In this document: piece by piece, positions 2,565 through 28,649 of the stretch
How the letters are laid out: every line of letters starts with the position of its first letter
How positions within the stretch are numbered: the stretch's first letter is position 1
Position numbers and translations under genes: made by a program
Source: a virus
Taxonomy: Duplodnaviria > Heunggongvirae > Uroviricota > Caudoviricetes
Length of the DNA: 34,897 nucleotides
Direction: 5' to 3' (one strand)
Virus record (IMG/VR): IMGVR_UViG_2579778778_000007
The notes under the pieces: model-generated
The model's database searches: none
What the model was told of the DNA's origin: nothing
Seen by the model: only the letters and a program-made list of their open reading frames with translations

Positions 2565-3488
2565 TCAGTAGTTATGTACTGAAGGAGGCAATTCTTTATT
2601 CTTAAGTCTCATCCATGCGGAAAGATTCGTTGGTCCGTCTGGCTCATTGATATCAACATCTCGTGTGTGGTTGATTAAAACGTCTCTCGCCATTCCGATA
2701 ACATACGAGAACTCATGACCATAGTCGTAGCATCTGCCGGAATAGTTCGATTGAATTTGTTTTAGCGCCGGATACAGTTCGCGGAATAATGCCTGTGAGC
2801 GGTTGGCATAATCCCATAACCATACAAGGCTGTTTGCTTCTTTTGCAGAAAGCTCGTTGGTTTTCTTCTCTTGTTTGCCGATTAACTCGCCTTCAAGCGG
2901 AACGCGAGCTGCAAGTGACAGAGCTTCGGTAAACTGCTCATCGCTGATTTCTTTGTATGAACACCCAAAATGAGATTTCAGTGACGACCACATGGTAATC
3001 ATTGCCTTCGCCTGTTTTTCTTTTGGCAGAGACTGACCGCGACTCATGACGAGTTGTTTAATGGCTTCCTGCTGTTCAGTGGTGATTTTACCCGGCAACG
3101 CCTTTTTAGCTTTGCGTGGGTTAACTACATGGCCTTTAGTCCAGTACTCGTAGAGCACATCGTCACACTCTTCCTGATACTGGATTACATTGTCGCGGAT
3201 TTCAGGGCGGACTTTGTTAGGGCTGATGGTTTGCAACCAGCCATTCAGTTTACGTAAAGCAAGGCAAATCATGGTCTGCACACCGCCAACTGAAGGTATT
3301 GCGATTTCCACAATACCTTTAGCAAATCTTTGTTTTAACTTTGTAAACTGTGAAGCCCAATCCATACCCATTCCCTCAACGATAGGTTTCATTGGGGTGT
3401 ACGGCTCACCGTTGTGATTGACAACATAAAGCTCTGCGCCGTGGAATGGTACATTGATAGTAGATACTGCTGTTGCTATACTTTTCAT
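2565..3488 (-). CDS. ant: Antirepressor (Ant-like)
   Basis: ORF track 307 aa; position downstream of arc and divergent from mnt-like gene exactly as in P22 immI; N-terminal segment resembles antirepressor family as remembered. Confidence 0.55.
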
Positions 3489-3570
3489 GTCGTTAATTCC
3501 TATGCGTGGTTTTACGATACCGAAGCCCTGACTGTTCCCGCAGTTGGGGCTTCACTGTTTTGATTTCTTT
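3489..3570 (+). ncRNA. Candidate sar-like antisense small RNA covering the ant ribosome-binding site
   Basis: Plus-strand promoter TTGATA (3454-3459) - 17 nt - TATACT (3477-3482) inside the ant 5' end, reading antisense across the ant SD; plus-strand hairpin 3522-3553 followed by U-rich tail to 3570. Confidence 0.35.
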
Positions 3571-3586
3571 GCCGCATCCAAGCGAA

Positions 3587-3727
3587 TCACACCGTTATCC
3601 CCTCTCTCCTCAGGCTGTCCAGCACCCGTTTAATTACTTCTGCGCTGAATGAGCGACACTCTTCCTTTGCTTTTTCTTCAAGGATTTTTTCTAGCTTCTC
3701 TGGCATACGCAGTGTTTTTACCTTCAT
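3587..3727 (-). CDS. arc: Arc-like ribbon-helix-helix repressor (46 aa, below ORF-track size cutoff)
   Basis: Hand-translated MKVKTLRMPEKLEKILEEKAKEECRSFSAEVIKRVLDSLRREGITV; SD GGAGG 5 nt upstream of ATG; resembles P22 Arc as remembered; sits between mnt-like gene and ant. Confidence 0.6.
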   Translation of the reverse strand: MKVKTLRMPEKLEKILEEKAKEECRSFSAEVIKRVLDSLRREGITV

Positions 3728-3740
3728 TGCATCCTCCGTT

Positions 3741-3804
3741 GTATGTGGTACGCATACATAGTATTTAGGTACGCATTGATAGTCAATAGATACCTACATA
3801 TCCT
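3741..3804. promoter_or_regulatory. Divergent overlapping promoters (Pant-like on minus: TTGACT-17-TACTAT; Pmnt-like on plus: TTGATA-17-TATCCT) with dyad-symmetric operator candidates
   Basis: Direct repeat GGTACGCAT at 3747-3755 and 3768-3776; nested dyad AGGTA..ATTGA tag TCAAT..TACCT at 3767-3795 centred on the overlapping -35 elements. Confidence 0.45.
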
Positions 3805-3832
3805 GTGGTAAAAAATTATTCAGGATGCGCCG

Positions 3833-4084
3833 ATGTCTGATCGTAAGTACAAAAACCCTCAAGTGAATCTGAGGCTTCCTGTAGAGATAAAGGAACGTCT
3901 TATTGAACTGGCTGAGGCTAATTCTCGTTCATTAAATGCTGAGATGGTCGCGGCACTTGAAGCGTGGACCGAAAAAAATAAACACATTCAAGCACTAGAC
4001 CTTGCAACTATAGCATCACGATTGATAGATCTTGAACACGATGTTGAGACGCTAAAGACCATGTATGGTAAGGATGCAAAATGA
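3833..4084 (+). CDS. mnt: Mnt-like ribbon-helix-helix repressor
   Basis: ORF track 83 aa (same length as P22 Mnt as remembered); N-terminal RHH-like segment NLRLPVEIKERLIELAEANSRSLNAEM; divergent from arc-ant. Confidence 0.55.
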   Translation: MSDRKYKNPQVNLRLPVEIKERLIELAEANSRSLNAEMVAALEAWTEKNKHIQALDLATIASRLIDLEHDVETLKTMYGKDAK

Positions 4085-4493: not shown

Positions 4494-5462
4494 TTAGATT
4501 TCTGGTTTCATTCTTCCGAAAACCTTTTCTATTCCTTTTTCGTATTCTTCTCTTGTCTCACTCATCGCTGCGACACCAAGAAGCTTACCGATATGCTGAC
4601 GCAAAGCCTTGACACCAATTTCAGAAAGGAACAGATGCAACTTATCAGATTGTTTTCCGTTCTCGTCTCGGCTGGCTCGAATCTGTTCAAGGATTTTACC
4701 TTTACTCTTTGCTAGCGGGGTGTATATCTGCATGTTGGTTAGCTGCCCAAAACGAATAGGCCGTCCTTTCTCTGGCCTATTCAGGCCGTACAGTCGATAC
4801 CACTCCTCGTATAGCTCATCTGGAAATTCCTTTTCATATTGACGAGCCTCTTCACGAACAAACGCTTTGAACTCGTCAATGACAGCCTGAACTTCTGGAC
4901 GATAACCAGCAAGCGCATACGCAACCCCCTTAATTCCCGCCTTAGCGGAGGCATTAATAAGTCTCTGTGCTGCGGCGGCTGCCTTTAACCGTGATTGTGG
5001 TAGATCGTCATTATCTTTGGCTTCTATTAGTGCCCTACCAATATCAACAATTGCTGTAATGTCATAACCTAACGCTTGATGAACGGTTTTAGACTTCGAA
5101 GTAAGTTGAAATTTATAGGGATTTTCCATTTTTCGCTGCAATTCTAGATCTCGGTATTTGCTCATATACTGAGCGCCAAGCAGTTGATCTAAATCCCTGG
5201 CATGTTCACCAATCCCTAGCAACTGAGATAATCCAGTTTTCGTAACAACGACAGTTTTCGACTCGTCATCCAGTACATAACATTCAGCATCAATGCCAAA
5301 ATCATCTAAAAAGTTACCACGATGAGTTGCCCTGAGAATCTTACTTTTCCATCTTGCAGCAGCTGCTTTCTTTGCTATTTCAGAACGCTGCTCTTTAGTC
5401 AGCGACTTTGCGCGAGCGATCCCGCCCTTAGCTTTCCCTTCGCCACTTTTCTTTTCAGTCAT
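4494..5462 (-). CDS. Hypothetical protein (322 aa from ATG at 5462) with lysine/arginine-rich N-terminal segment; function unknown
   Basis: ORF track 4494-5525 begins at a TTG; in-frame ATG at 5460-5462 with SD-like AAAGGTG; occupies the locus where P22 has sieA. Confidence 0.7.
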   Translation of the reverse strand: MTEKKSGEGKAKGGIARAKSLTKEQRSEIAKKAAAARWKSKILRATHRGNFLDDFGIDAECYVLDDESKTVVVTKTGLSQLLGIGEHARDLDQLLGAQYMSKYRDLELQRKMENPYKFQLTSKSKTVHQALGYDITAIVDIGRALIEAKDNDDLPQSRLKAAAAAQRLINASAKAGIKGVAYALAGYRPEVQAVIDEFKAFVREEARQYEKEFPDELYEEWYRLYGLNRPEKGRPIRFGQLTNMQIYTPLAKSKGKILEQIRASRDENGKQSDKLHLFLSEIGVKALRQHIGKLLGVAAMSETREEYEKGIEKVFGRMKPEI

Positions 5463-21733: not shown

Positions 21734-22916
21734 TTGGTAATGGGCGTTTATTGGTTCTGCTTTCCAGTGCGCGGTTAAGCTGCGTCAGAAGCACAACAAC
21801 GCAATCAAGCTCTTTGGCAAGGTTCTTCAGTCCTTTGGTGATCATGCCGTAAGCAAGGTCGTTGCGATCGGCCTTCTCAGCGGTCATTAGTGTCAGGTAA
21901 TCGACCAGAATCATGCCAACACATCCTTTTTCTCGCTTGATTCGACGGCTTTCGCTGACGATTTGAGCCAGAGATAATCCCGGCGTGTCGTCGATGTAAA
22001 GCAGGTCGATTTCACTCAAACGATTAGCTGTTTCGATCGCCCTGTTGAAGTCACCATCGTAATCACCCTGATAGCCGTCATCAGCGTCATTTGTCGCCGG
22101 AAGGTAAAAAATATTCGGGTTAACACCTGACTTCTGCCCTACCAGTTTTTCCAGTATCTGATCACCTGGCATTTCAAGGCTGAACATCAGAGCGGGCTTT
22201 TTCTCATGCACTGCGCAGTTGATTGCCATCTGGCTGTATAGCGTCGTTTTCCCCATCTTAGGGCGAGCGCCAATGACAAACAGAGAGCCTTTCACCAGAC
22301 CTTTCGGTGACAGCATCCTGTCCAGCGATGGGATCCCTGTGCTCATTCCTCGTTGTTCGCCTGACGGGTCAAATCGCTTCTCAAGGTCGCTAACCCAGTC
22401 TTCCATGACCTCACCAAATGAGCGAAGGCCGCGACGCGATCCGGTTTTTGCATGGTCTGTCAGTTGCGTGAAAATCGCCTGAATAGCTTCGTACTTCTGC
22501 GTCGCAGTCATTCCGTTGCGGGAATAGAGCAATTCCGTCGCTTCAGTCATGCGGTTGATGGCGTAGCGTTCCATTGCGGTTTCACGAACCTGCATTGCAT
22601 AGGCAACGATGTTTGCTGCGCTTGGCGTGTTCTTTGCGATCTCAGCGATATAAGCAAAACCGCCAACAGACACCGTTAACGATTTACGCTCCAGTTCATC
22701 GAAAAGCGTCAGGCCATCTACTGGCTTTTGCTCCCGGTGCATTCTGGTTATTTCTTCGAAAAGGATTTTGTGTGGTCGGCTGTAAAATGAATCGGGCTTC
22801 AGCATCGCCAGAACTTTCTGGACGCGCTCACTGCTGTCATCATCCAGAAGCAATCCACCAATCACCGCCTGCTCTGCCTCGATGCTATGGGGCGGCGCAT
22901 AAAAATTATCGGTCAT
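21690..22916 (-). CDS. Replicative DNA helicase (DnaB family)
   Basis: ORF track 21690-22931 (GTG); ATG at 22914-22916 with SD; N-terminal PHSIEAEQAVIGG and Walker A GARPKMGKT. Confidence 0.85.
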   Translation of the reverse strand: MTDNFYAPPHSIEAEQAVIGGLLLDDDSSERVQKVLAMLKPDSFYSRPHKILFEEITRMHREQKPVDGLTLFDELERKSLTVSVGGFAYIAEIAKNTPSAANIVAYAMQVRETAMERYAINRMTEATELLYSRNGMTATQKYEAIQAIFTQLTDHAKTGSRRGLRSFGEVMEDWVSDLEKRFDPSGEQRGMSTGIPSLDRMLSPKGLVKGSLFVIGARPKMGKTTLYSQMAINCAVHEKKPALMFSLEMPGDQILEKLVGQKSGVNPNIFYLPATNDADDGYQGDYDGDFNRAIETANRLSEIDLLYIDDTPGLSLAQIVSESRRIKREKGCVGMILVDYLTLMTAEKADRNDLAYGMITKGLKNLAKELDCVVVLLTQLNRALESRTNKRPLPSDSRDTGHPRNSSR

Positions 22917-23796
22917 CGTGTTCACCCTCACGAACTTTCAGGTAGGTATTGTCGTTAAGCAGGAAATCAAATCCCTTTTTGTGCCAGACGGTTCCGCGTT
23001 GATGGTTTGGACGCTCTTCGAACATCCATCGGCAATTTTCGCCTACGTAGCTCAAATAATTTCTCCAGTCCTGCATCGTGAACCCATGCCCGTCAAGCTG
23101 GCGGGTTATCACTCCGGCTTTGCGCCAGAACGTTCGGATCTGGTTTTTACGCTTGTCATTCAGTGCGCGGATTCTTGGCGCTTCAGGAAGGATTTCGTGG
23201 TAAGCATCGACAACATCCTGACAGCTGACGGGAGGTTTTTTCTTGTCAGACTTTTTGTCTGCTGTGGCACTCTCTAATACGTCAGTATTAGAGATATTAT
23301 TTATATTATTGTTTATGGACAACCGTTGGACAACCGTTGGACAATCTCCGCTGAGAGCCGCGCCATTACTTGTGTTTGCGTTGGACAACCGTTGGACAAC
23401 CGTTGGACAATTTTTTGCCTGAAAATCGTCATATTTAACGATTGTAAACAGGCTAAATTTCTTCCCCATCGAGCAAATATTAAGCATCCCTTTCGACTCA
23501 AAAGTCCGTAATAAGCTCCGAACTTTGTTGTCGGGGATGAATGTTTCTCTGACCAGCGACGGGCGTCCAGTTATCATCTGACCGCGATCAACAGTTATCG
23601 GCCCGATATCCGTATTGACGACAGTAGATTCGTGATTAGCCTTGAGGATTAAGTGAAGCCAAAGATGTACTGCCTGAGAGTCCTTATAGAGCCTGCTGTC
23701 CATAAACTGGCGGTGTATAGAGACATACCCCATACTGGATGCCTCCTGATGTTGTACAGGGTTATGCCTGTAATCAGCTAACTTAACGACGCCCAT
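22906..23796 (-). CDS. O: Replication initiator O-like protein (origin-binding), ori embedded in coding sequence
   Basis: ORF track 296 aa; iteron cluster inside the gene translates as repeated PTVVQRLS; followed by helicase gene. Confidence 0.75.
   Translation of the reverse strand: MGVVKLADYRHNPVQHQEASSMGYVSIHRQFMDSRLYKDSQAVHLWLHLILKANHESTVVNTDIGPITVDRGQMITGRPSLVRETFIPDNKVRSLLRTFESKGMLNICSMGKKFSLFTIVKYDDFQAKNCPTVVQRLSNANTSNGAALSGDCPTVVQRLSINNNINNISNTDVLESATADKKSDKKKPPVSCQDVVDAYHEILPEAPRIRALNDKRKNQIRTFWRKAGVITRQLDGHGFTMQDWRNYLSYVGENCRWMFEERPNHQRGTVWHKKGFDFLLNDNTYLKVREGEHDDR
23318..23412. repeat. Origin iterons: two clusters of three 11-bp direct repeats (GGACAACCGTT) followed by an AT-rich tract to about 23450
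   Basis: Read directly: 23318-23350 and 23383-23412. Confidence 0.8.
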
Positions 23797-23944
23797 GCTT
23801 CACTCCTGCTTTGGCTAGTCTGTAAACACCAACAAGGCGCTCTGCGAACGCCCTGTTATTTGCTGCGGCTACCACTAATCCCTCAGGTGAATCAGGGTGT
23901 CGAATCTCTTCTTTTTCCTGGTATTTCTTACGACGTTTTGTCAT
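23783..23944 (-). CDS. Hypothetical small basic protein (53 aa) between cII-like gene and O
   Basis: Hand-translated MTKRRKKYQEKEEIRHPDSPEGLVVAAANNRAFAERLVGVYRLAKAGVKHGRR; SD AGGAG 5 nt upstream; 3' end overlaps O start. Confidence 0.35.
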   Translation of the reverse strand: MTKRRKKYQEKEEIRHPDSPEGLVVAAANNRAFAERLVGVYRLAKAGVKHGRR

Positions 23945-23976
23945 AATTACTCCTGTGGATTGATCCAGTAATTCCC

Positions 23977-24273
23977 TCAGAATTGCATATCAATTTGCTT
24001 AAAATCCTCGGTGGCGGCCGGGGATTTTTTCTTTGTGATTTCATCAAGCGCATACTTAAAAGCCCTGCTAATCGGACTGATGTCTGATGCCATTCCGAAA
24101 GCACACAAGACCGAAGCAATAAATCTCCAGTCCGTTCTGCTTATCTTCGATTCATGACAGCCAATCATCTTTGCCAGACCGCGCTGGGTAAGCGTTGACA
24201 GGTTGATGAGTAAATCAGTTTCTGCGCGATCAATTTCTCGCTGTGTTGGCTTGCTGTAACTTGCTTGTGTCAT
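23977..24273 (-). CDS. cII: CII-like transcriptional activator (not lambda-type over most of its length)
   Basis: ORF track 98 aa; HTH-like TQRGLAKMIGCHESKISR; C-terminus KKKSPAATEDFKQIDMQF resembles remembered lambda CII tail; position after cro/nutR. Confidence 0.6.
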   Translation of the reverse strand: MTQASYSKPTQREIDRAETDLLINLSTLTQRGLAKMIGCHESKISRTDWRFIASVLCAFGMASDISPISRAFKYALDEITKKKSPAATEDFKQIDMQF

Positions 24274-24357
24274 TTGTTAATTTTCCAATAGTGAATAGTT
24301 AGTTGAAAGGTATGCGTGGAAACGCATATGGCCTTAGTTGGTCAGATATCTTGGGGC

Positions 24358-24393
24358 TCGCTTTGTCAGCGACGTAGGACGAATGTCCATTGT
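24358..24393 (-). promoter_or_regulatory. nutR-like site: boxA-like CGCTCTTTT (24385-24393) and boxB hairpin UCGCUGACAAAGCGA (24358-24372)
   Basis: boxB has same loop GACAA as nutL boxB at 27070-27084; boxA matches CGCTCTT consensus. Confidence 0.55.
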
Positions 24394-24410
24394 GAAAAGA
24401 GCGGTGTTAC

Positions 24411-24620
<210 letters not shown>

Positions 24621-24637
24621 TTAGTACATGCAACCAT

Positions 24638-24701
24638 TATCACCGCTAGAGGTAAAATAGTCAACACGCGCGGTGTTAGATATTTATCCCTTGCGGTGAT
24701 A
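24638..24701. promoter_or_regulatory. Lambda-type right operator OR1 (24638-24654), OR2 (24662-24678), OR3 (24685-24701) with pR/pRM
   Basis: 17-bp operators match remembered lambda OR; OR1 and OR2 each differ at one position from my remembered canonical sequence. Confidence 0.8.
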
Positions 24702-24708
24702 GATTTAA

Positions 24709-25425
<717 letters not shown>

Positions 25426-25502
25426 GGCCAGCAACGGATCACAACAAACACATGGGGCGGCGGATTAAGGGTGATGGAGAATCGAAATAAGTTGAGGTCA
25501 AC

Positions 25503-25658
25503 ATGAACACGTTCAGCATAATCGCGATACCTTTTTTTGCCCTTTCAGTGGTTCTGTTGACTCTTGGCGCTACCAGGAAGAACCAAGCCAGCTTCATCGT
25601 TGGCGGCGTGTTTATGGCGTCATGCGTGGTTAATGCCATTATCGGCATGTCTCTTTGA
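25503..25658 (+). CDS. Hypothetical small hydrophobic protein (51 aa, two predicted membrane helices), below ORF-track cutoff
   Basis: Hand-translated MNTFSIIAIPFFALSVVLLTLGATRKNQASFIVGGVFMASCVVNAIIGMSL; SD GAGG 5 nt upstream; 78 nt downstream of cI stop. Confidence 0.4.
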   Translation: MNTFSIIAIPFFALSVVLLTLGATRKNQASFIVGGVFMASCVVNAIIGMSL

Positions 25659-25850
25659 GCGCTATGAGATCAGGCATCCTCGTTACTTTGTCATGTGTGA
25701 CAGCCTGGTATGCACTCTGCGAGCTTTGATGTGGTTTACCACTTTAATAGTCACCGTATCACTAAACTGATTAGCTTTACTCATACTCTTGTGGATTCGC
25801 TATTTCTGATGTCAATGCAAAAAAATACTAAGGAAACAAAAAGGATACTT

Positions 25851-26117
25851 ATGTCAGATAACACTATTAAAATCATACCTCAGCACATGACCGCCACATC
25901 AGTTCTTATTACGCCTGATCGTGCTGAAACAATCATTACTTTTTACCGCCATGAATTTGAGCATCACATGCAGTCTGATGAGCAAGGAAATAATAGCTTC
26001 CAAGTAAAAGTTGAGTTGACCCCTAACATGTCAGTCTCAATGAGCCCGGATCAAGCTGTTGCATTAGTAAAATCATTACAGGTAGCTCTCAGGGATAATG
26101 GGCTATGGAAAGACTGA
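25851..26117 (+). CDS. Hypothetical protein (88 aa from ATG 25851)
   Basis: ORF track 25710-26117; ATG at 25851 preceded by AAAAAGGA; no recognised homology. Confidence 0.5.
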   Translation: MSDNTIKIIPQHMTATSVLITPDRAETIITFYRHEFEHHMQSDEQGNNSFQVKVELTPNMSVSMSPDQAVALVKSLQVALRDNGLWKD

Positions 26118-26755
26118 AGCCAGTTTCTTCAGTTCAACCTACCTCAGGAACAACATCATCAGTTCTTCCAAGTATTATAGTTAGTGCAACCCTAGCAGCG
26201 ACAACCGTTTCTCCTTATGGGGATCCATCTCAGTACCAAAGTATTGGTATTGATGCTAAGGTATCAAATAGAGTTTCATACGCCATGGACGAAACGGGTT
26301 TGCGCCCAAGTAAGGAAGATGTAGCGATGAAGAGTGATACCCTGGAGGTAAGCGTGAGCGGAATGTCCAGAGAAGAACTTGACGCAAAGCTTTCACAAAA
26401 CAAATCAGAGGTAGAGTCTATTGCTGCGGAAATGCGTCGCGAATCAGCTGACTTTAAAACCTATTATACTCAGCAATTTTCTTCTATTGAGAGAGGTATT
26501 GCTGAAATTAAAGGTGAAATCGGCGGTTTGAAAACGGGACTTACAACGACTCAGTGGGCGATGGCCGTTGGCTTGACTTTAGTTACTGTGATTCTGTCTG
26601 GCGTGATGTTAGCCTCAAGTTGGATTATCTCCGGCAATGACAAGTCACCATCAGTAACCAGCCCGGCTCCAATTATAATACAGGTACCGACACAGCAACC
26701 ATTAACGAGCGCTCCAACTAACCAATCGTCATCACAACAAGCTCCTAAGCAATAA
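26105..26755 (+). CDS. Hypothetical membrane-anchored protein: Ser/Thr-rich N-terminus, coiled coil, one transmembrane helix, Pro/Gln/Ser-rich tail (alternative start ATG 26327)
   Basis: ORF track 216 aa; 13-nt overlap with upstream gene; hydrophobic WAMAVGLTLVTVILSGVMLASSWII. Confidence 0.6.
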   Translation: MERLKPVSSVQPTSGTTSSVLPSIIVSATLAATTVSPYGDPSQYQSIGIDAKVSNRVSYAMDETGLRPSKEDVAMKSDTLEVSVSGMSREELDAKLSQNKSEVESIAAEMRRESADFKTYYTQQFSSIERGIAEIKGEIGGLKTGLTTTQWAMAVGLTLVTVILSGVMLASSWIISGNDKSPSVTSPAPIIIQVPTQQPLTSAPTNQSSSQQAPKQ

Positions 26756-26760
26756 ATAAA

Positions 26761-26787
26761 CCCGGCCACCGCGCCGGGTTTTCTTTG
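26761..26787 (+). terminator. Rho-independent terminator ending the cI-side operon just before OL
   Basis: CCCGGC-cac cgc-GCCGGG followed by TTTTCTTT, 6 nt after stop codon. Confidence 0.6.
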
Positions 26788-26938
26788 CCTCACGTTCGCC
26801 CCAAAACACATAACCAATTGTATTTATTTGAAAATTAATAGATACAACTCACTAAACATCGCAATTCAGATCTCTCGATCACCTCCCAAGCCACACACCC
26901 CTGCAAAAAAAATAAATCTATATAAAAAACATACAGAT

Positions 26939-27001
26939 AACCATCTGCGGTGATAAATTATCTCTGGCGGTGTTGACATAAATACCACTGGCGGTGATAC
27001 T
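26939..27001. promoter_or_regulatory. Lambda-type left operator OL3 (26939-26955), OL2 (26959-26975), OL1 (26983-26999) and pL (-35 TTGACA 26973-26978, -10 GATACT 26996-27001)
   Basis: Matches remembered lambda OL/pL; similarity to lambda ends about 15 nt after the -10. Confidence 0.85.
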
Positions 27002-27069
27002 AAACACATCAGCAGGACGCACTACTCACCAGGGCGGTGAATATACAACGATTCGAATATGAATCTACG

Positions 27070-27084
27070 GCGCTGACAAAGCGC
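27070..27084 (+). promoter_or_regulatory. nutL boxB hairpin GCGCUGACAAAGCGC (P22-type)
   Basis: Matches remembered P22 nutL boxB; between pL and N. Confidence 0.6.
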
Positions 27085-27249
27085 AATAACCAAAGTGAAC
27101 TTTGGGGTGTGGTGAAGGGTTCATGGACGGGAATATGTCGCACGTAAAGCGGCGAGGCCTGCGGGACTATTGCCGAATTGAAGTAGGCCGAAACAGGTCG
27201 AAATGGGTCTTCCACCTACCACACCACCAAAGTTCATCAGGAGGTCTAT

Positions 27250-27633
27250 ATGACACGCAGAACTCAGTTCAAAGGCAATTCACGTTCTCGTCGTCGTGAG
27301 CGTTTAAAGGCAAAGGCATTAGCTAACGGCGTACTGGCCCGCGAAGAAGCAATAAGTTCAGAAGTATTACACCGCCCTACTCTAAGCAGAGCGCAGATTC
27401 AGGCTAAAGGTACTCACGAAACGCCTGAGCGCATAGAAGACGCTAAGCCAATTAAGTTCATGGCACAGGACGTGATCTGGCAACAGAAAGAATACAGACG
27501 CAATCTGGAGAGAGCGGCCATTGTGTACGCGAATGAGTTTGGGCATAGGCAACCAGAAACTGGTGTATGTCTTCCAAATGTAGCTCTTTACGCGGCAGGC
27601 TACAGGAAATCAAAACAACTGACAGCGAGGTAA
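27250..27633 (+). CDS. N: N antiterminator, P22 gp24 / phage 21-type (not lambda-type)
   Basis: ORF track 127 aa; Arg-rich N-terminus; C-terminus LPNVALYAAGYRKSKQLTAR resembles remembered P22 gp24 tail; SD AGGAGG 5 nt upstream. Confidence 0.75.
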   Translation: MTRRTQFKGNSRSRRRERLKAKALANGVLAREEAISSEVLHRPTLSRAQIQAKGTHETPERIEDAKPIKFMAQDVIWQQKEYRRNLERAAIVYANEFGHRQPETGVCLPNVALYAAGYRKSKQLTAR

Positions 27634-27636
27634 GTG

Positions 27637-27861
27637 ATGAATCAGACATACATTCCATCATGCTTGAGAAATCTGCCAAAGCAGAAAGCAAAGCCCCGCA
27701 AGCAAGCCATAAAGGACGCTAAGGCAGAGGTTATTGATCAAGCAATACAATTGCTCAGGGAGGAGTTAAGAAGTGGCAAGCTCGAAGGAATGATGATGCC
27801 CTATCAGCGCGGATATCTATCGGCGATTAGTAAGTTGGAAGTATTGAAGAGTGAATTATGA
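27637..27861 (+). CDS. Hypothetical early-left protein
   Basis: ORF track 27634-27861; ATG 27637 with SD GAGG. Confidence 0.5.
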   Translation: MNQTYIPSCLRNLPKQKAKPRKQAIKDAKAEVIDQAIQLLREELRSGKLEGMMMPYQRGYLSAISKLEVLKSEL

Positions 27862-28175
27862 ACTATCTGGAATTTCCGGATGGTTCATTGTTTTGGCAGC
27901 AAACCACTTATTTGAGGTGGGATATGGAGTTTCATGAAAGTGCGATTTGTGATTTTCGCGCTAACGCAAATTCAGTAAAACCACAGCCAATTGCAGTTCT
28001 TTTTAAAACAATGGGTGCGTGGGCTGTTTTATGCTTCGCCGCTGACGACACTGACGCAAGAATGGCAATAGGCCAAGAGATGGAGATGGACCCGACAAAC
28101 GATGAATTCATAATTTATGGCGCTCCATCTAATTACTTACTTGATACCTGCAACATTTACAACAAGGCTGCCTGA
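27858..28175 (+). CDS. Hypothetical early-left protein
   Basis: ORF track 105 aa; ATGA overlap with upstream gene. Confidence 0.5.
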   Translation: MNYLEFPDGSLFWQQTTYLRWDMEFHESAICDFRANANSVKPQPIAVLFKTMGAWAVLCFAADDTDARMAIGQEMEMDPTNDEFIIYGAPSNYLLDTCNIYNKAA

Positions 28176-28543: not shown

Positions 28544-28649
28544 GATGCGAATAAGCGCTGTGTATTCATTCCAACGAGTGAATACACGGAGCAATGTCGC
28601 TCGTAACTAAACAGGAGACGACTTGTTCTGATTATTGGAAATCTTCTTT

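Follow-up and report, generated by a model that had tools for sequence, protein, structure and literature searches.

A conserved two-gene prophage module, gp49/gp48, in the rexAB position of an HK97-like phage: a candidate exclusion system

Between the repressor gene cI and the left operator OL, the place of rexA and rexB in phage lambda, the DNA analyzed here encodes two proteins that are, residue for residue, Gp49 and Gp48 of phage HK97, both annotated without function. This DNA is a 34,897-nucleotide (nt) stretch of a tailed phage (Caudoviricetes; IMG/VR record IMGVR_UViG_2579778778_000007). It is called the window throughout, and positions refer to it unless another locus is named. We report that gp49 and gp48 form a conserved unit, a two-gene pair that travels together among unrelated repressor types. 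By analogy with RexA/RexB, the pair may be an exclusion device expressed in the lysogen and made of a sensor and a membrane effector, a reading that we prefer while giving it somewhat less than an even chance. An earlier note on this DNA had described the interval as a three-gene cassette and a candidate defense module of an undescribed kind.

RESULTS

Gp49 and Gp48 form a pair conserved in prophages of ten genera

The three open reading frames (ORFs) that the earlier note located between a lambda-type cI gene and OL/pL are all there, on the + strand: orf51 (51 residues, 25503-25658), gp49 (88 residues, 25851-26117; annotated as Gp49 in HK97, match to phrog_26809) and gp48 (216 residues, 26105-26755; annotated as Gp48 in HK97, match to phrog_5820). 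The cassette is 99.8% identical in nucleotide sequence to HK97 over 1,365 nt, in the same cI-to-N position, and there are no amino acid differences between Gp49 or Gp48 and the HK97 copies (NP_037734 and NP_037733, respectively). Phage HK225 is equally close, and the cassette is present in 53 of 5,426 complete Escherichia coli genomes. As a sequence, then, the module is not the undescribed one of the earlier note; as a function it is, since no role has been described in the literature searched. The similarity to HK97 breaks off downstream of N at 27631 and returns at 28548 at about 95%, with a different early-left operon in between. The window therefore belongs to an HK97-like prophage, a relative of HK97 and not HK97 itself. 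One IMG/VR contig is 100% identical to the window across 22860-27978.

Relatives of Gp48 numbered 11 in a word-indexed search and 210 clusters (at 50% identity) in an exhaustive profile search, with 109 of the clusters at E ≤1e-10. In every locus examined, a small ORF lies directly 5′ of the gp48-like gene, abutting or overlapping it, and mostly encodes a recognizable Gp49 relative. The partner profile comprises 35 proteins from eight enterobacterial genera, which share the pattern ITFxRH ... VxLxMSxxxAxxLxxxL. In the window, gp48 starts inside the 3′ end of gp49, with 13 nt shared. The same overlap is found in Klebsiella, where a partner of 88 residues, 66% identical to Gp49, precedes a Gp48-like protein that is 34% identical, behind a 132-residue repressor of the YdaS/YdaT type. 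Rac-like loci encode a 101-residue partner, found in 784 blocks of the collection, and a Gp48-like protein of 203 to 215 residues, behind a repressor and before kilR-ydaE-recE. Behind S24 repressors, Yersinia carries a 98-residue partner with a Gp48-like protein of 196 to 202 residues, and Kosakonia carries an 84-residue partner with one of 247 residues. The Morganella pair (97 and 248 residues) lies between a tail-fiber assembly gene and an invertase gene, at the end of a Mu/P2-like prophage.

The pair thus follows repressors of at least five types and, once, occupies another accessory slot, the tail-fiber/invertase end of a myovirus prophage. The genera that carry the module in prophages are Escherichia, Citrobacter, Klebsiella, Salmonella, Yersinia, Serratia, Cronobacter, Morganella, Kosakonia, and Xenorhabdus; a scan of genome contigs returned only 3 loci. 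Because the module of other genera lacks orf51, this ORF lies outside the conserved unit, and the three-gene cassette of the earlier note shrinks to gp49/gp48. In Morganella morganii (L042/L043, 3501-4543), the pair sits beside a Gin-type invertase at the prophage edge, far from any repressor, with a weak promoter-like site, ATGACG-17-AATAAT, 18 nt upstream.

This distribution bears on two other explanations. If the ORFs were evolutionary filler with no selected function, the missing functional assignment in the HK97 annotation would be expected, and the 24 copies from the E. coli lineage are nearly identical, so that they hold little information on selection. However, diverged homologs keep the length, the architecture, the gene order and the start/stop overlap down to 34% identity, and the profile search found as many as 109 clusters at the stringent threshold, which makes filler highly improbable. 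The genes might otherwise serve the development of the phage itself, by tuning the switch between lysogeny and lytic growth (as reported for RexA/RexB), in induction, in the timing of lysis or by anchoring replication to the membrane. Close linkage to many repressor types could mean a regulatory partnership, and a coiled coil with a C-terminal transmembrane (TM) segment recalls some lysis-associated proteins. Nevertheless, the association with at least five unrelated repressor families, and the Morganella locus far from any repressor, argue against a repressor-specific role, and lambda, mEp234 and HK106, which have the same cI, do without the pair. We consider a developmental role unlikely.

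Gp48 is predicted to be a tail-anchored coiled-coil protein

The AlphaFold2 model of Gp48 contains helices at residues 89 to 139 and 147 to 177, with the first 88 and the last 40 residues disordered. Its overall confidence is low (predicted local distance difference test [pLDDT], 49.8), the best-modeled part being the stalk at residues 88 to 139 (pLDDT, 79-82). Hydropathy analysis revealed a single strong TM segment at about residues 146 to 178 (Kyte-Doolittle value, 2.25). Both analyses agree with the membrane-anchored coiled coil that the earlier note had read into this protein, with the TM segment at about residues 147 to 178. Because Gp48 has no signal peptide and about 146 residues precede the TM segment, the predicted orientation is Nin-Cout, and Gp48 is likely tail anchored in the inner membrane. 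Residues 17 to 36 were considered as a second TM segment or a signal peptide and rejected, as their Kyte-Doolittle value is just 1.42 and they are absent from most subfamilies.

On the + strand, gp48 begins with the sequence for a hypervariable N-terminal region (residues 1 to 86; 26105-26362), followed by the head motif SREELDAKLSQNKSEV and the coiled-coil stalk (residues 88 to 139; 26366-26521), the C-terminal TM anchor (residues ~147 to 178, including a TTTQW motif; 26543-26638) and a predicted periplasmic tail rich in Pro, Gln and Ser (26639-26752), with a PIIIQVP motif at 26669-26689. The features of the family are a variable N terminus of 4 to 119 residues, the motif [ST]REELDAKLxxNKAEV, a coiled coil and one TM segment. 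The distance from the motif to the TM segment is 64 to 124 residues, and the tail, of 1 to 75 residues, often contains QP(I/V)(I/V)IQVP. Mean pairwise identity is 0.14 in the N terminus versus 0.41 in the stalk. Residues E91, A94, L96, E102, Q150, and P189, the last one in the tail, are at least 90% conserved over 103 sequences, and a TM segment is present in 92 of the 92 members scored (minimum Kyte-Doolittle value, 1.59).

Within gp48, the in-frame sequence GGAGG-N5-GTG at V84, followed by an ATG at M87 (26344-26365, + strand), is a possible internal start immediately ahead of the conserved SREELDAKL motif, and a short isoform of Gp48 lacking the variable N terminus is possible by this route. 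The Klebsiella homolog keeps GGAGG-N5-GTG at the V84 site, and for several family members a start at the motif is predicted. In the Rac-like homologs (L035-L038, ~4880-4950), the predicted periplasmic tail includes an (AP)n tract of variable length, so that otherwise identical loci encode proteins of 203, 207, 211, and 215 residues, which suggests slippage-driven length change.

Profile searches bore out the absence of a recognized family. The three cassette proteins had nothing significant in Pfam, NCBIfam or PADLOC, and PHROGs returned only two families of unknown function. Neither was there a Rex match for any of the three in Pfam, NCBIfam, PHROGs or PADLOC, in line with the claim that the cassette replaces rexAB without resembling it. 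A sequence search of the PDB with the Gp48 family profile returned only coiled-coil noise (best E = 0.0022), and the Gp48 model, itself of low confidence, had no match in BFVD. As for SieB, presuming that it has a Pfam model, no match appeared for Gp48 at E ≤1 or among the 25 families listed for 103 relatives.

A weak likeness to PF07798 (CCDC90-like/DUF1640) was seen at the level of the family, with 32 of 103 Gp48-family members as weak matches at E <0.01. Among ten members scored singly, the best reached 32.3 bits over profile positions 57 to 167 (stalk and TM segment), for a gathering cutoff of 33.5, and HK97 Gp48 scored 12.6 bits (E = 0.12). DUF1640 proteins are integral membrane proteins of prokaryotes and mitochondria, organized as a head, a stalk that opens with a beta-layer motif, and a TM segment; the consensus of the motif is [aliphatic]-A-T-K-[polar]-[DE] (PMC4786415). 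At the corresponding point, the Gp48 family has [MIVF]-[ST]-[RK]-x-E-[LIF], which is similar but one residue shorter. By sequence, the Gp48 family is at most a sub-threshold relative of the DUF1640/CCDC90-like proteins.

The same likeness supports the view that the pair is cargo for lysogenic conversion or host physiology, with Gp48 as a membrane scaffold or tether and Gp49 modulating a process of the inner membrane such as a transporter, a protease, division or a stress response. A scaffold role has been proposed for the DUF1640/MCUR1 proteins, to which the family is distantly similar with its scores of up to 32.3 bits, and Gp48 is a tail-anchored coiled coil without an enzymatic or pore-like domain. 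In addition, morons often aid host fitness and not defense (PMC3594210), and the defense database gave no match. Yet HK97 Gp48 itself scores just 12.6 bits, the family is sporadic and found in prophages only in every context seen, and a hypervariable N terminus with a partner that varies along with it is more in keeping with a conflict interface than with a conserved host target. We regard a role in host physiology as rather unlikely while granting it appreciable weight.

The partner type tracks the N terminus of Gp48

Gp49 is acidic (pI 5.4), soluble and devoid of a TM segment. Its AlphaFold2 model, made from a 30-sequence alignment (pLDDT, 68), has strands at residues 5 to 8, 15 to 20, 27 to 41, and 49 to 64 and a helix at 66 to 82; a fold search found no convincing structural neighbor. 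A longer form of 135 residues, starting at 25710, was rejected: a 1-nt insertion at 25818 in one copy (L010) breaks the extension and leaves the 88-residue ORF intact, and the Klebsiella homolog begins at the same Met as that ORF.

The type of partner tracks the motif class of the Gp48 N terminus in four pairings, namely, Gp49 with IIVSATLAA..SPYG, ITFCRH with MPAYHEK, INFFKM with TPAYYD, and SITFVKY with LSPYPH. From this we infer that the disordered tail at the N terminus of Gp48 is where Gp49 binds. At a few loci the partner is longer (106 to 147 residues) and has no evident similarity to Gp49. In Xenorhabdus (L030/L039) and in L031, short Gp48 members of 136 to 169 residues, with nearly no N-terminal region, are preceded by unrelated partners of 106 or 125 residues. 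In L030, a gene that looks tail- or baseplate-like, judged by eye from its translation, directly follows the pair. The partner slot may accept nonhomologous proteins.

The arrangement of the pair, a gene for a small acidic protein first and then a membrane-protein gene that overlaps it by 13 nt, would also suit an addiction module of the toxin-antitoxin kind that stabilizes the prophage, with Gp48 as a membrane toxin and Gp49, encoded upstream and coupled to it in translation, as the antidote. The two genes are inherited together, and the same slot of mEp234 contains a HicAB pair. However, no similarity to known toxin-antitoxin families was detected in Pfam, NCBIfam or PADLOC. Moreover, this explanation partly overlaps with defense, as a toxin-antitoxin role is compatible with it. 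Taken separately, we find it improbable.

The cargo slot lies between two conserved joints

The geometry of the locus, cI-cargo-terminator-OL/pL-N, is that of lambda, with a different cargo. Upstream of the slot are lambda-type OR operators (24638-24701) and the lambda-type cI repressor gene (237 residues; 24712-25425, + strand), whose product matches PDB entry 3BDN with 518 bits and is cI/Gp50 in HK97. Downstream, also on the + strand, are OL3 (26939-26955), OL2 (26959-26975), OL1 (26983-26999), and, from a promoter scan, pL (TTGACA-17-GATACT; 26973-27001). OR and OL together gave 7 operator matches, versus 0.53 expected by chance.

The boundaries of the slot emerged when 24 cassette copies were compared with the window. 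The left edge of similarity was at position 25401, 25450, or 25015 (phages with other repressors), and the right edge was at 26789 or slightly past it. The left mosaic joint is a conserved flank of 51 nt after cI (25426-25476, + strand), which is 100% identical in mEp234, HK106, and mEp506. In these three phages, cI and the boundaries of the slot are the same, and the cargo is a HicA/HicB pair with a 141-residue ORF (2864-3994 in mEp234, L007). Similarity between mEp234 and the window resumes at 26759.

On the right is a rho-independent terminator (26758-26790, + strand), made of AAACCCGGCCACCGCGCCGGGTTT and a T-run, with a hairpin at 26758-26781 of 9 pairs, 6 of them G-C. The earlier note saw in it the end of the cassette, just before OL3. 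The hairpin is real, but it lies ~150 nt ahead of OL3. Because the segment 26756-26940 recurs in 228 phage records, among them lambda (86.6%) and many Stx phages (82-90%), the terminator is a conserved lambdoid joint in the flank, and its inclusion in the cassette was rejected. The diverged modules of Klebsiella and of the Rac-like prophages are also followed by near-identical hairpins (CCGGCCACTGCGCCGGGTTTTT). Two conserved recombination joints delimit the slot, the 3′ end of cI on the left and the lambdoid terminator on the right.

The cassette is also found behind the HK225 repressor, a 139-residue helix-turn-helix repressor and a hybrid cI. The hybrid repressor, of 233 residues, precedes the same cassette in three IMG/VR prophages (L012, L021, and L024). 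Its C-terminal domain is that of lambda cI, ~99% identical from position 25015 on, and its N-terminal DNA-binding domain is different; the joint at 25015, inside cI, is a mosaic joint at the repressor hinge. The cI-N interval has been presented as a mosaic hotspot with rexAB and BstA in papers that cite Degnan 2007 (PMC8585504, PMC7067206). The slot downstream of the repressor hosts rexAB and BstA (PMC8585504) as well as GiPD474 (PMC12724215). With hicAB in mEp234, these examples agree with the earlier description of the slot as a known site for cargo and defense genes.

All three ORFs are co-oriented with cI. Between the cI stop codon and gp49, we found neither a predicted terminator nor a promoter, and a strong terminator follows gp48; the scan for sigma-70-like promoters, at ≥9/12 matches, was empty over 25426-25850. 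Because the genes are co-oriented with neither terminator nor promoter in between, we reasonably infer that the cassette is co-transcribed with cI from PRM in the lysogen. orf51 and gp49 are separated by an AT-rich spacer of 192 nt with no recognized element (25659-25850, + strand). The spacer yielded no Rfam match and no promoter at the above threshold, and a separate promoter for gp49-gp48 inside it was discarded on the basis of that scan. More widely, Rfam identified no credible RNA in 24300-27400. The G+C content is 0.36-0.375 at 25700-25999, versus 0.45-0.49 in cI. In the definition of Juhala et al., as quoted in PMC3594210, a moron has its own promoter, its own terminator and a G+C content unlike that of its neighbors. 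For the cassette, the promoter scan is empty, the terminator belongs to the shared flank, and the G+C content dips as just described.

orf51 is a lineage-specific addition

The orf51 product has two hydrophobic segments, at residues 1 to 25 and 28 to 51, parted by ATRKNQ, as befits the two-helix hydrophobic peptide of the earlier note. Its start is preceded by GAGG-N5-ATG. The exact protein is called on 772 contigs, and the 90% cluster to which it belongs comprises 25 proteins, found in Escherichia, Citrobacter, Enterobacter, and Shigella; each of the 15 that were aligned is 51 residues long, with mostly conservative substitutions. The variants comprise 5 synonymous and 4 nonsynonymous changes (p ~0.05 in a binomial estimate that takes ~3/4 of sites as nonsynonymous), a ratio that weakly supports coding. 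orf51 is not annotated in HK97 and is usually skipped by PGAP as well, and it probably encodes a real small membrane protein with two TM segments. A 69-residue ORF on the minus strand (25439-25648), which matches F845_gp45 of HK225, was set aside. Its exact sequence is absent from a collection of 15 billion proteins, and the substitutions are nonconservative in that frame (I43S, P28L, H9L, and M4T) and conservative in the orf51 frame. As a lineage-specific addition outside the conserved unit, orf51 is missing from the module in the Klebsiella, Rac-like, Yersinia, Kosakonia, and Morganella loci.

DISCUSSION

A possible course of events in the lysogen is as follows. orf51, gp49 and gp48 would be read off the cI transcript initiated at PRM, which would end at the lambdoid terminator. 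Gp48 would be inserted in the inner membrane in an Nin-Cout orientation as an oligomeric stalk, possibly trimeric like the DUF1640 proteins, and Gp49 would bind its disordered, fast-evolving N-terminal tail. Together, Gp49 as a sensor or regulator and Gp48 as a membrane effector would exclude superinfecting phages, which is the least supported step. By the logic of RexA/RexB, a phage cue would alter the Gp49-Gp48 interaction and Gp48 would then perturb the membrane, causing abortive infection; alternatively, the two proteins would stop DNA entry at the inner membrane. Speaking for an exclusion role are the probable expression in the lysogen, the record of the slot as a home of exclusion genes, the conservation of the pair, its accessory locations and a pattern suggestive of a sensor and an effector, namely, an N terminus far more variable than the stalk and a partner type that goes with it. 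The scheme in its full form, that of a new two-component prophage exclusion system in which the small beta-sheet protein Gp49 reads a cue via the N-terminal tail of Gp48, and in which tail-anchored, oligomeric Gp48, as part of a bacterial and phage branch of the DUF1640/MCUR1 superfamily, disables the membrane or blocks DNA entry, is doubtful and somewhat less probable than an exclusion role in the broad sense.

Several points weigh against exclusion by the pair. PADLOC-DB 2.0 (2023) contains no defense family that matches any of the three cassette proteins at E ≤1, and full-text searches of the literature found no study of the function or phenotype of HK97 genes 48 and 49 and no phenotype reported for any other member of the two families. 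Transcription of the cassette from PRM is deduced from sequence. The defense-prone position is circumstantial evidence, as toxin-antitoxin genes and genes without a known role occur in the slot as well. With its single TM segment, Gp48 is not obviously a channel or a pore. The predicted binding of Gp49 to Gp48 draws on roughly a dozen loci, and just 10 of 86 Gp48 N termini contain the P(A)Y motif. gp48 shows no polymorphism among the 24 copies from the E. coli lineage, which indicates recent spread, with no arms-race turnover visible at this level. Finally, HK97 already has a characterized exclusion protein, gp15 (PMC3594210).

Although HK97 is a model phage, its replacements for rexAB have had no assigned role since the genome was published. 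Genes 48 and 49 are no orphans: they represent a two-gene module conserved across prophages of ten genera, a family that can now be put to the test. The picture at the family level, with a small protein and a tail-anchored coiled-coil protein in accessory slots of prophages, has not been described before, as far as our searches show. If the exclusion reading is correct, the pair would be a mechanistically distinct, membrane-anchored member of the repressor-linked prophage systems. An exclusion role would also give a handle on the prokaryotic DUF1640-like proteins and, if Gp48 belongs to the DUF1640/MCUR1 superfamily, would be its first prokaryotic function. If the pair does not act in defense, it will caution against taking a position in the rex slot as a sign of defense.

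Like rexA and rexB, gp49 and gp48 lie between cI and the terminator that precedes OL, co-oriented with cI, and in both cases two genes encode one cytoplasmic and one membrane protein. In contrast, there is no sequence similarity between the two pairs. The hallmark of RexAB is the exclusion of T4 rII and other phages through depolarization of the membrane. RexB spans the membrane several times, whereas Gp48 has one C-terminal TM segment behind a long coiled coil. RexAB is described as a sensor that activates an ion channel in the membrane, RexB (PMC8585504, PMC10884400). RexA binds DNA and resembles RdgC in structure (PMC12315714), whereas Gp49, with its 88 residues, is predicted to form a beta-sheet and a helix.

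BstA of Salmonella phage BTP1 and GiPD474 of Gifsy-1 are likewise encoded downstream of a prophage repressor, are presumed to be co-transcribed with it and have a proven role in defense (PMC8585504, PMC12724215). They differ from the Gp49/Gp48 pair in being single proteins of unrelated kinds and not membrane coiled coils. BstA acts where phage DNA is replicated (PMC8585504), and GiPD474 has an ATPase domain (PMC12724215). In HK97 itself, gp15 is a small inner-membrane protein of the prophage that blocks genome entry of other phages (PMC3594210), and the inner membrane is also the predicted location of the orf51 product and Gp48, from the same type of phage. However, gp15 is encoded by a moron in the tail operon that has a promoter and a terminator of its own (PMC3594210), and it has no similarity to the cassette genes.

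Like the Gp48 family, the PF07798/DUF1640 proteins (MCUR1, CCDC90B, and prokaryotic membrane proteins) have a head, then a coiled-coil stalk, and a TM segment at the C terminus, although no Gp48 member scored singly reaches 33.5 bits and the beta-layer motif is inexact ([aliphatic]-[ST]-[RK]-x-E). Lastly, the HicAB cassette of mEp234, HK106, and mEp506 occupies the same slot behind the same cI, with the same 51-nt left joint and terminator joint, and its content, a toxin-antitoxin pair with a third ORF, is unrelated to Gp49/Gp48. Occupancy by HicAB shows that the slot is a general cargo bay and not one devoted to a single function.

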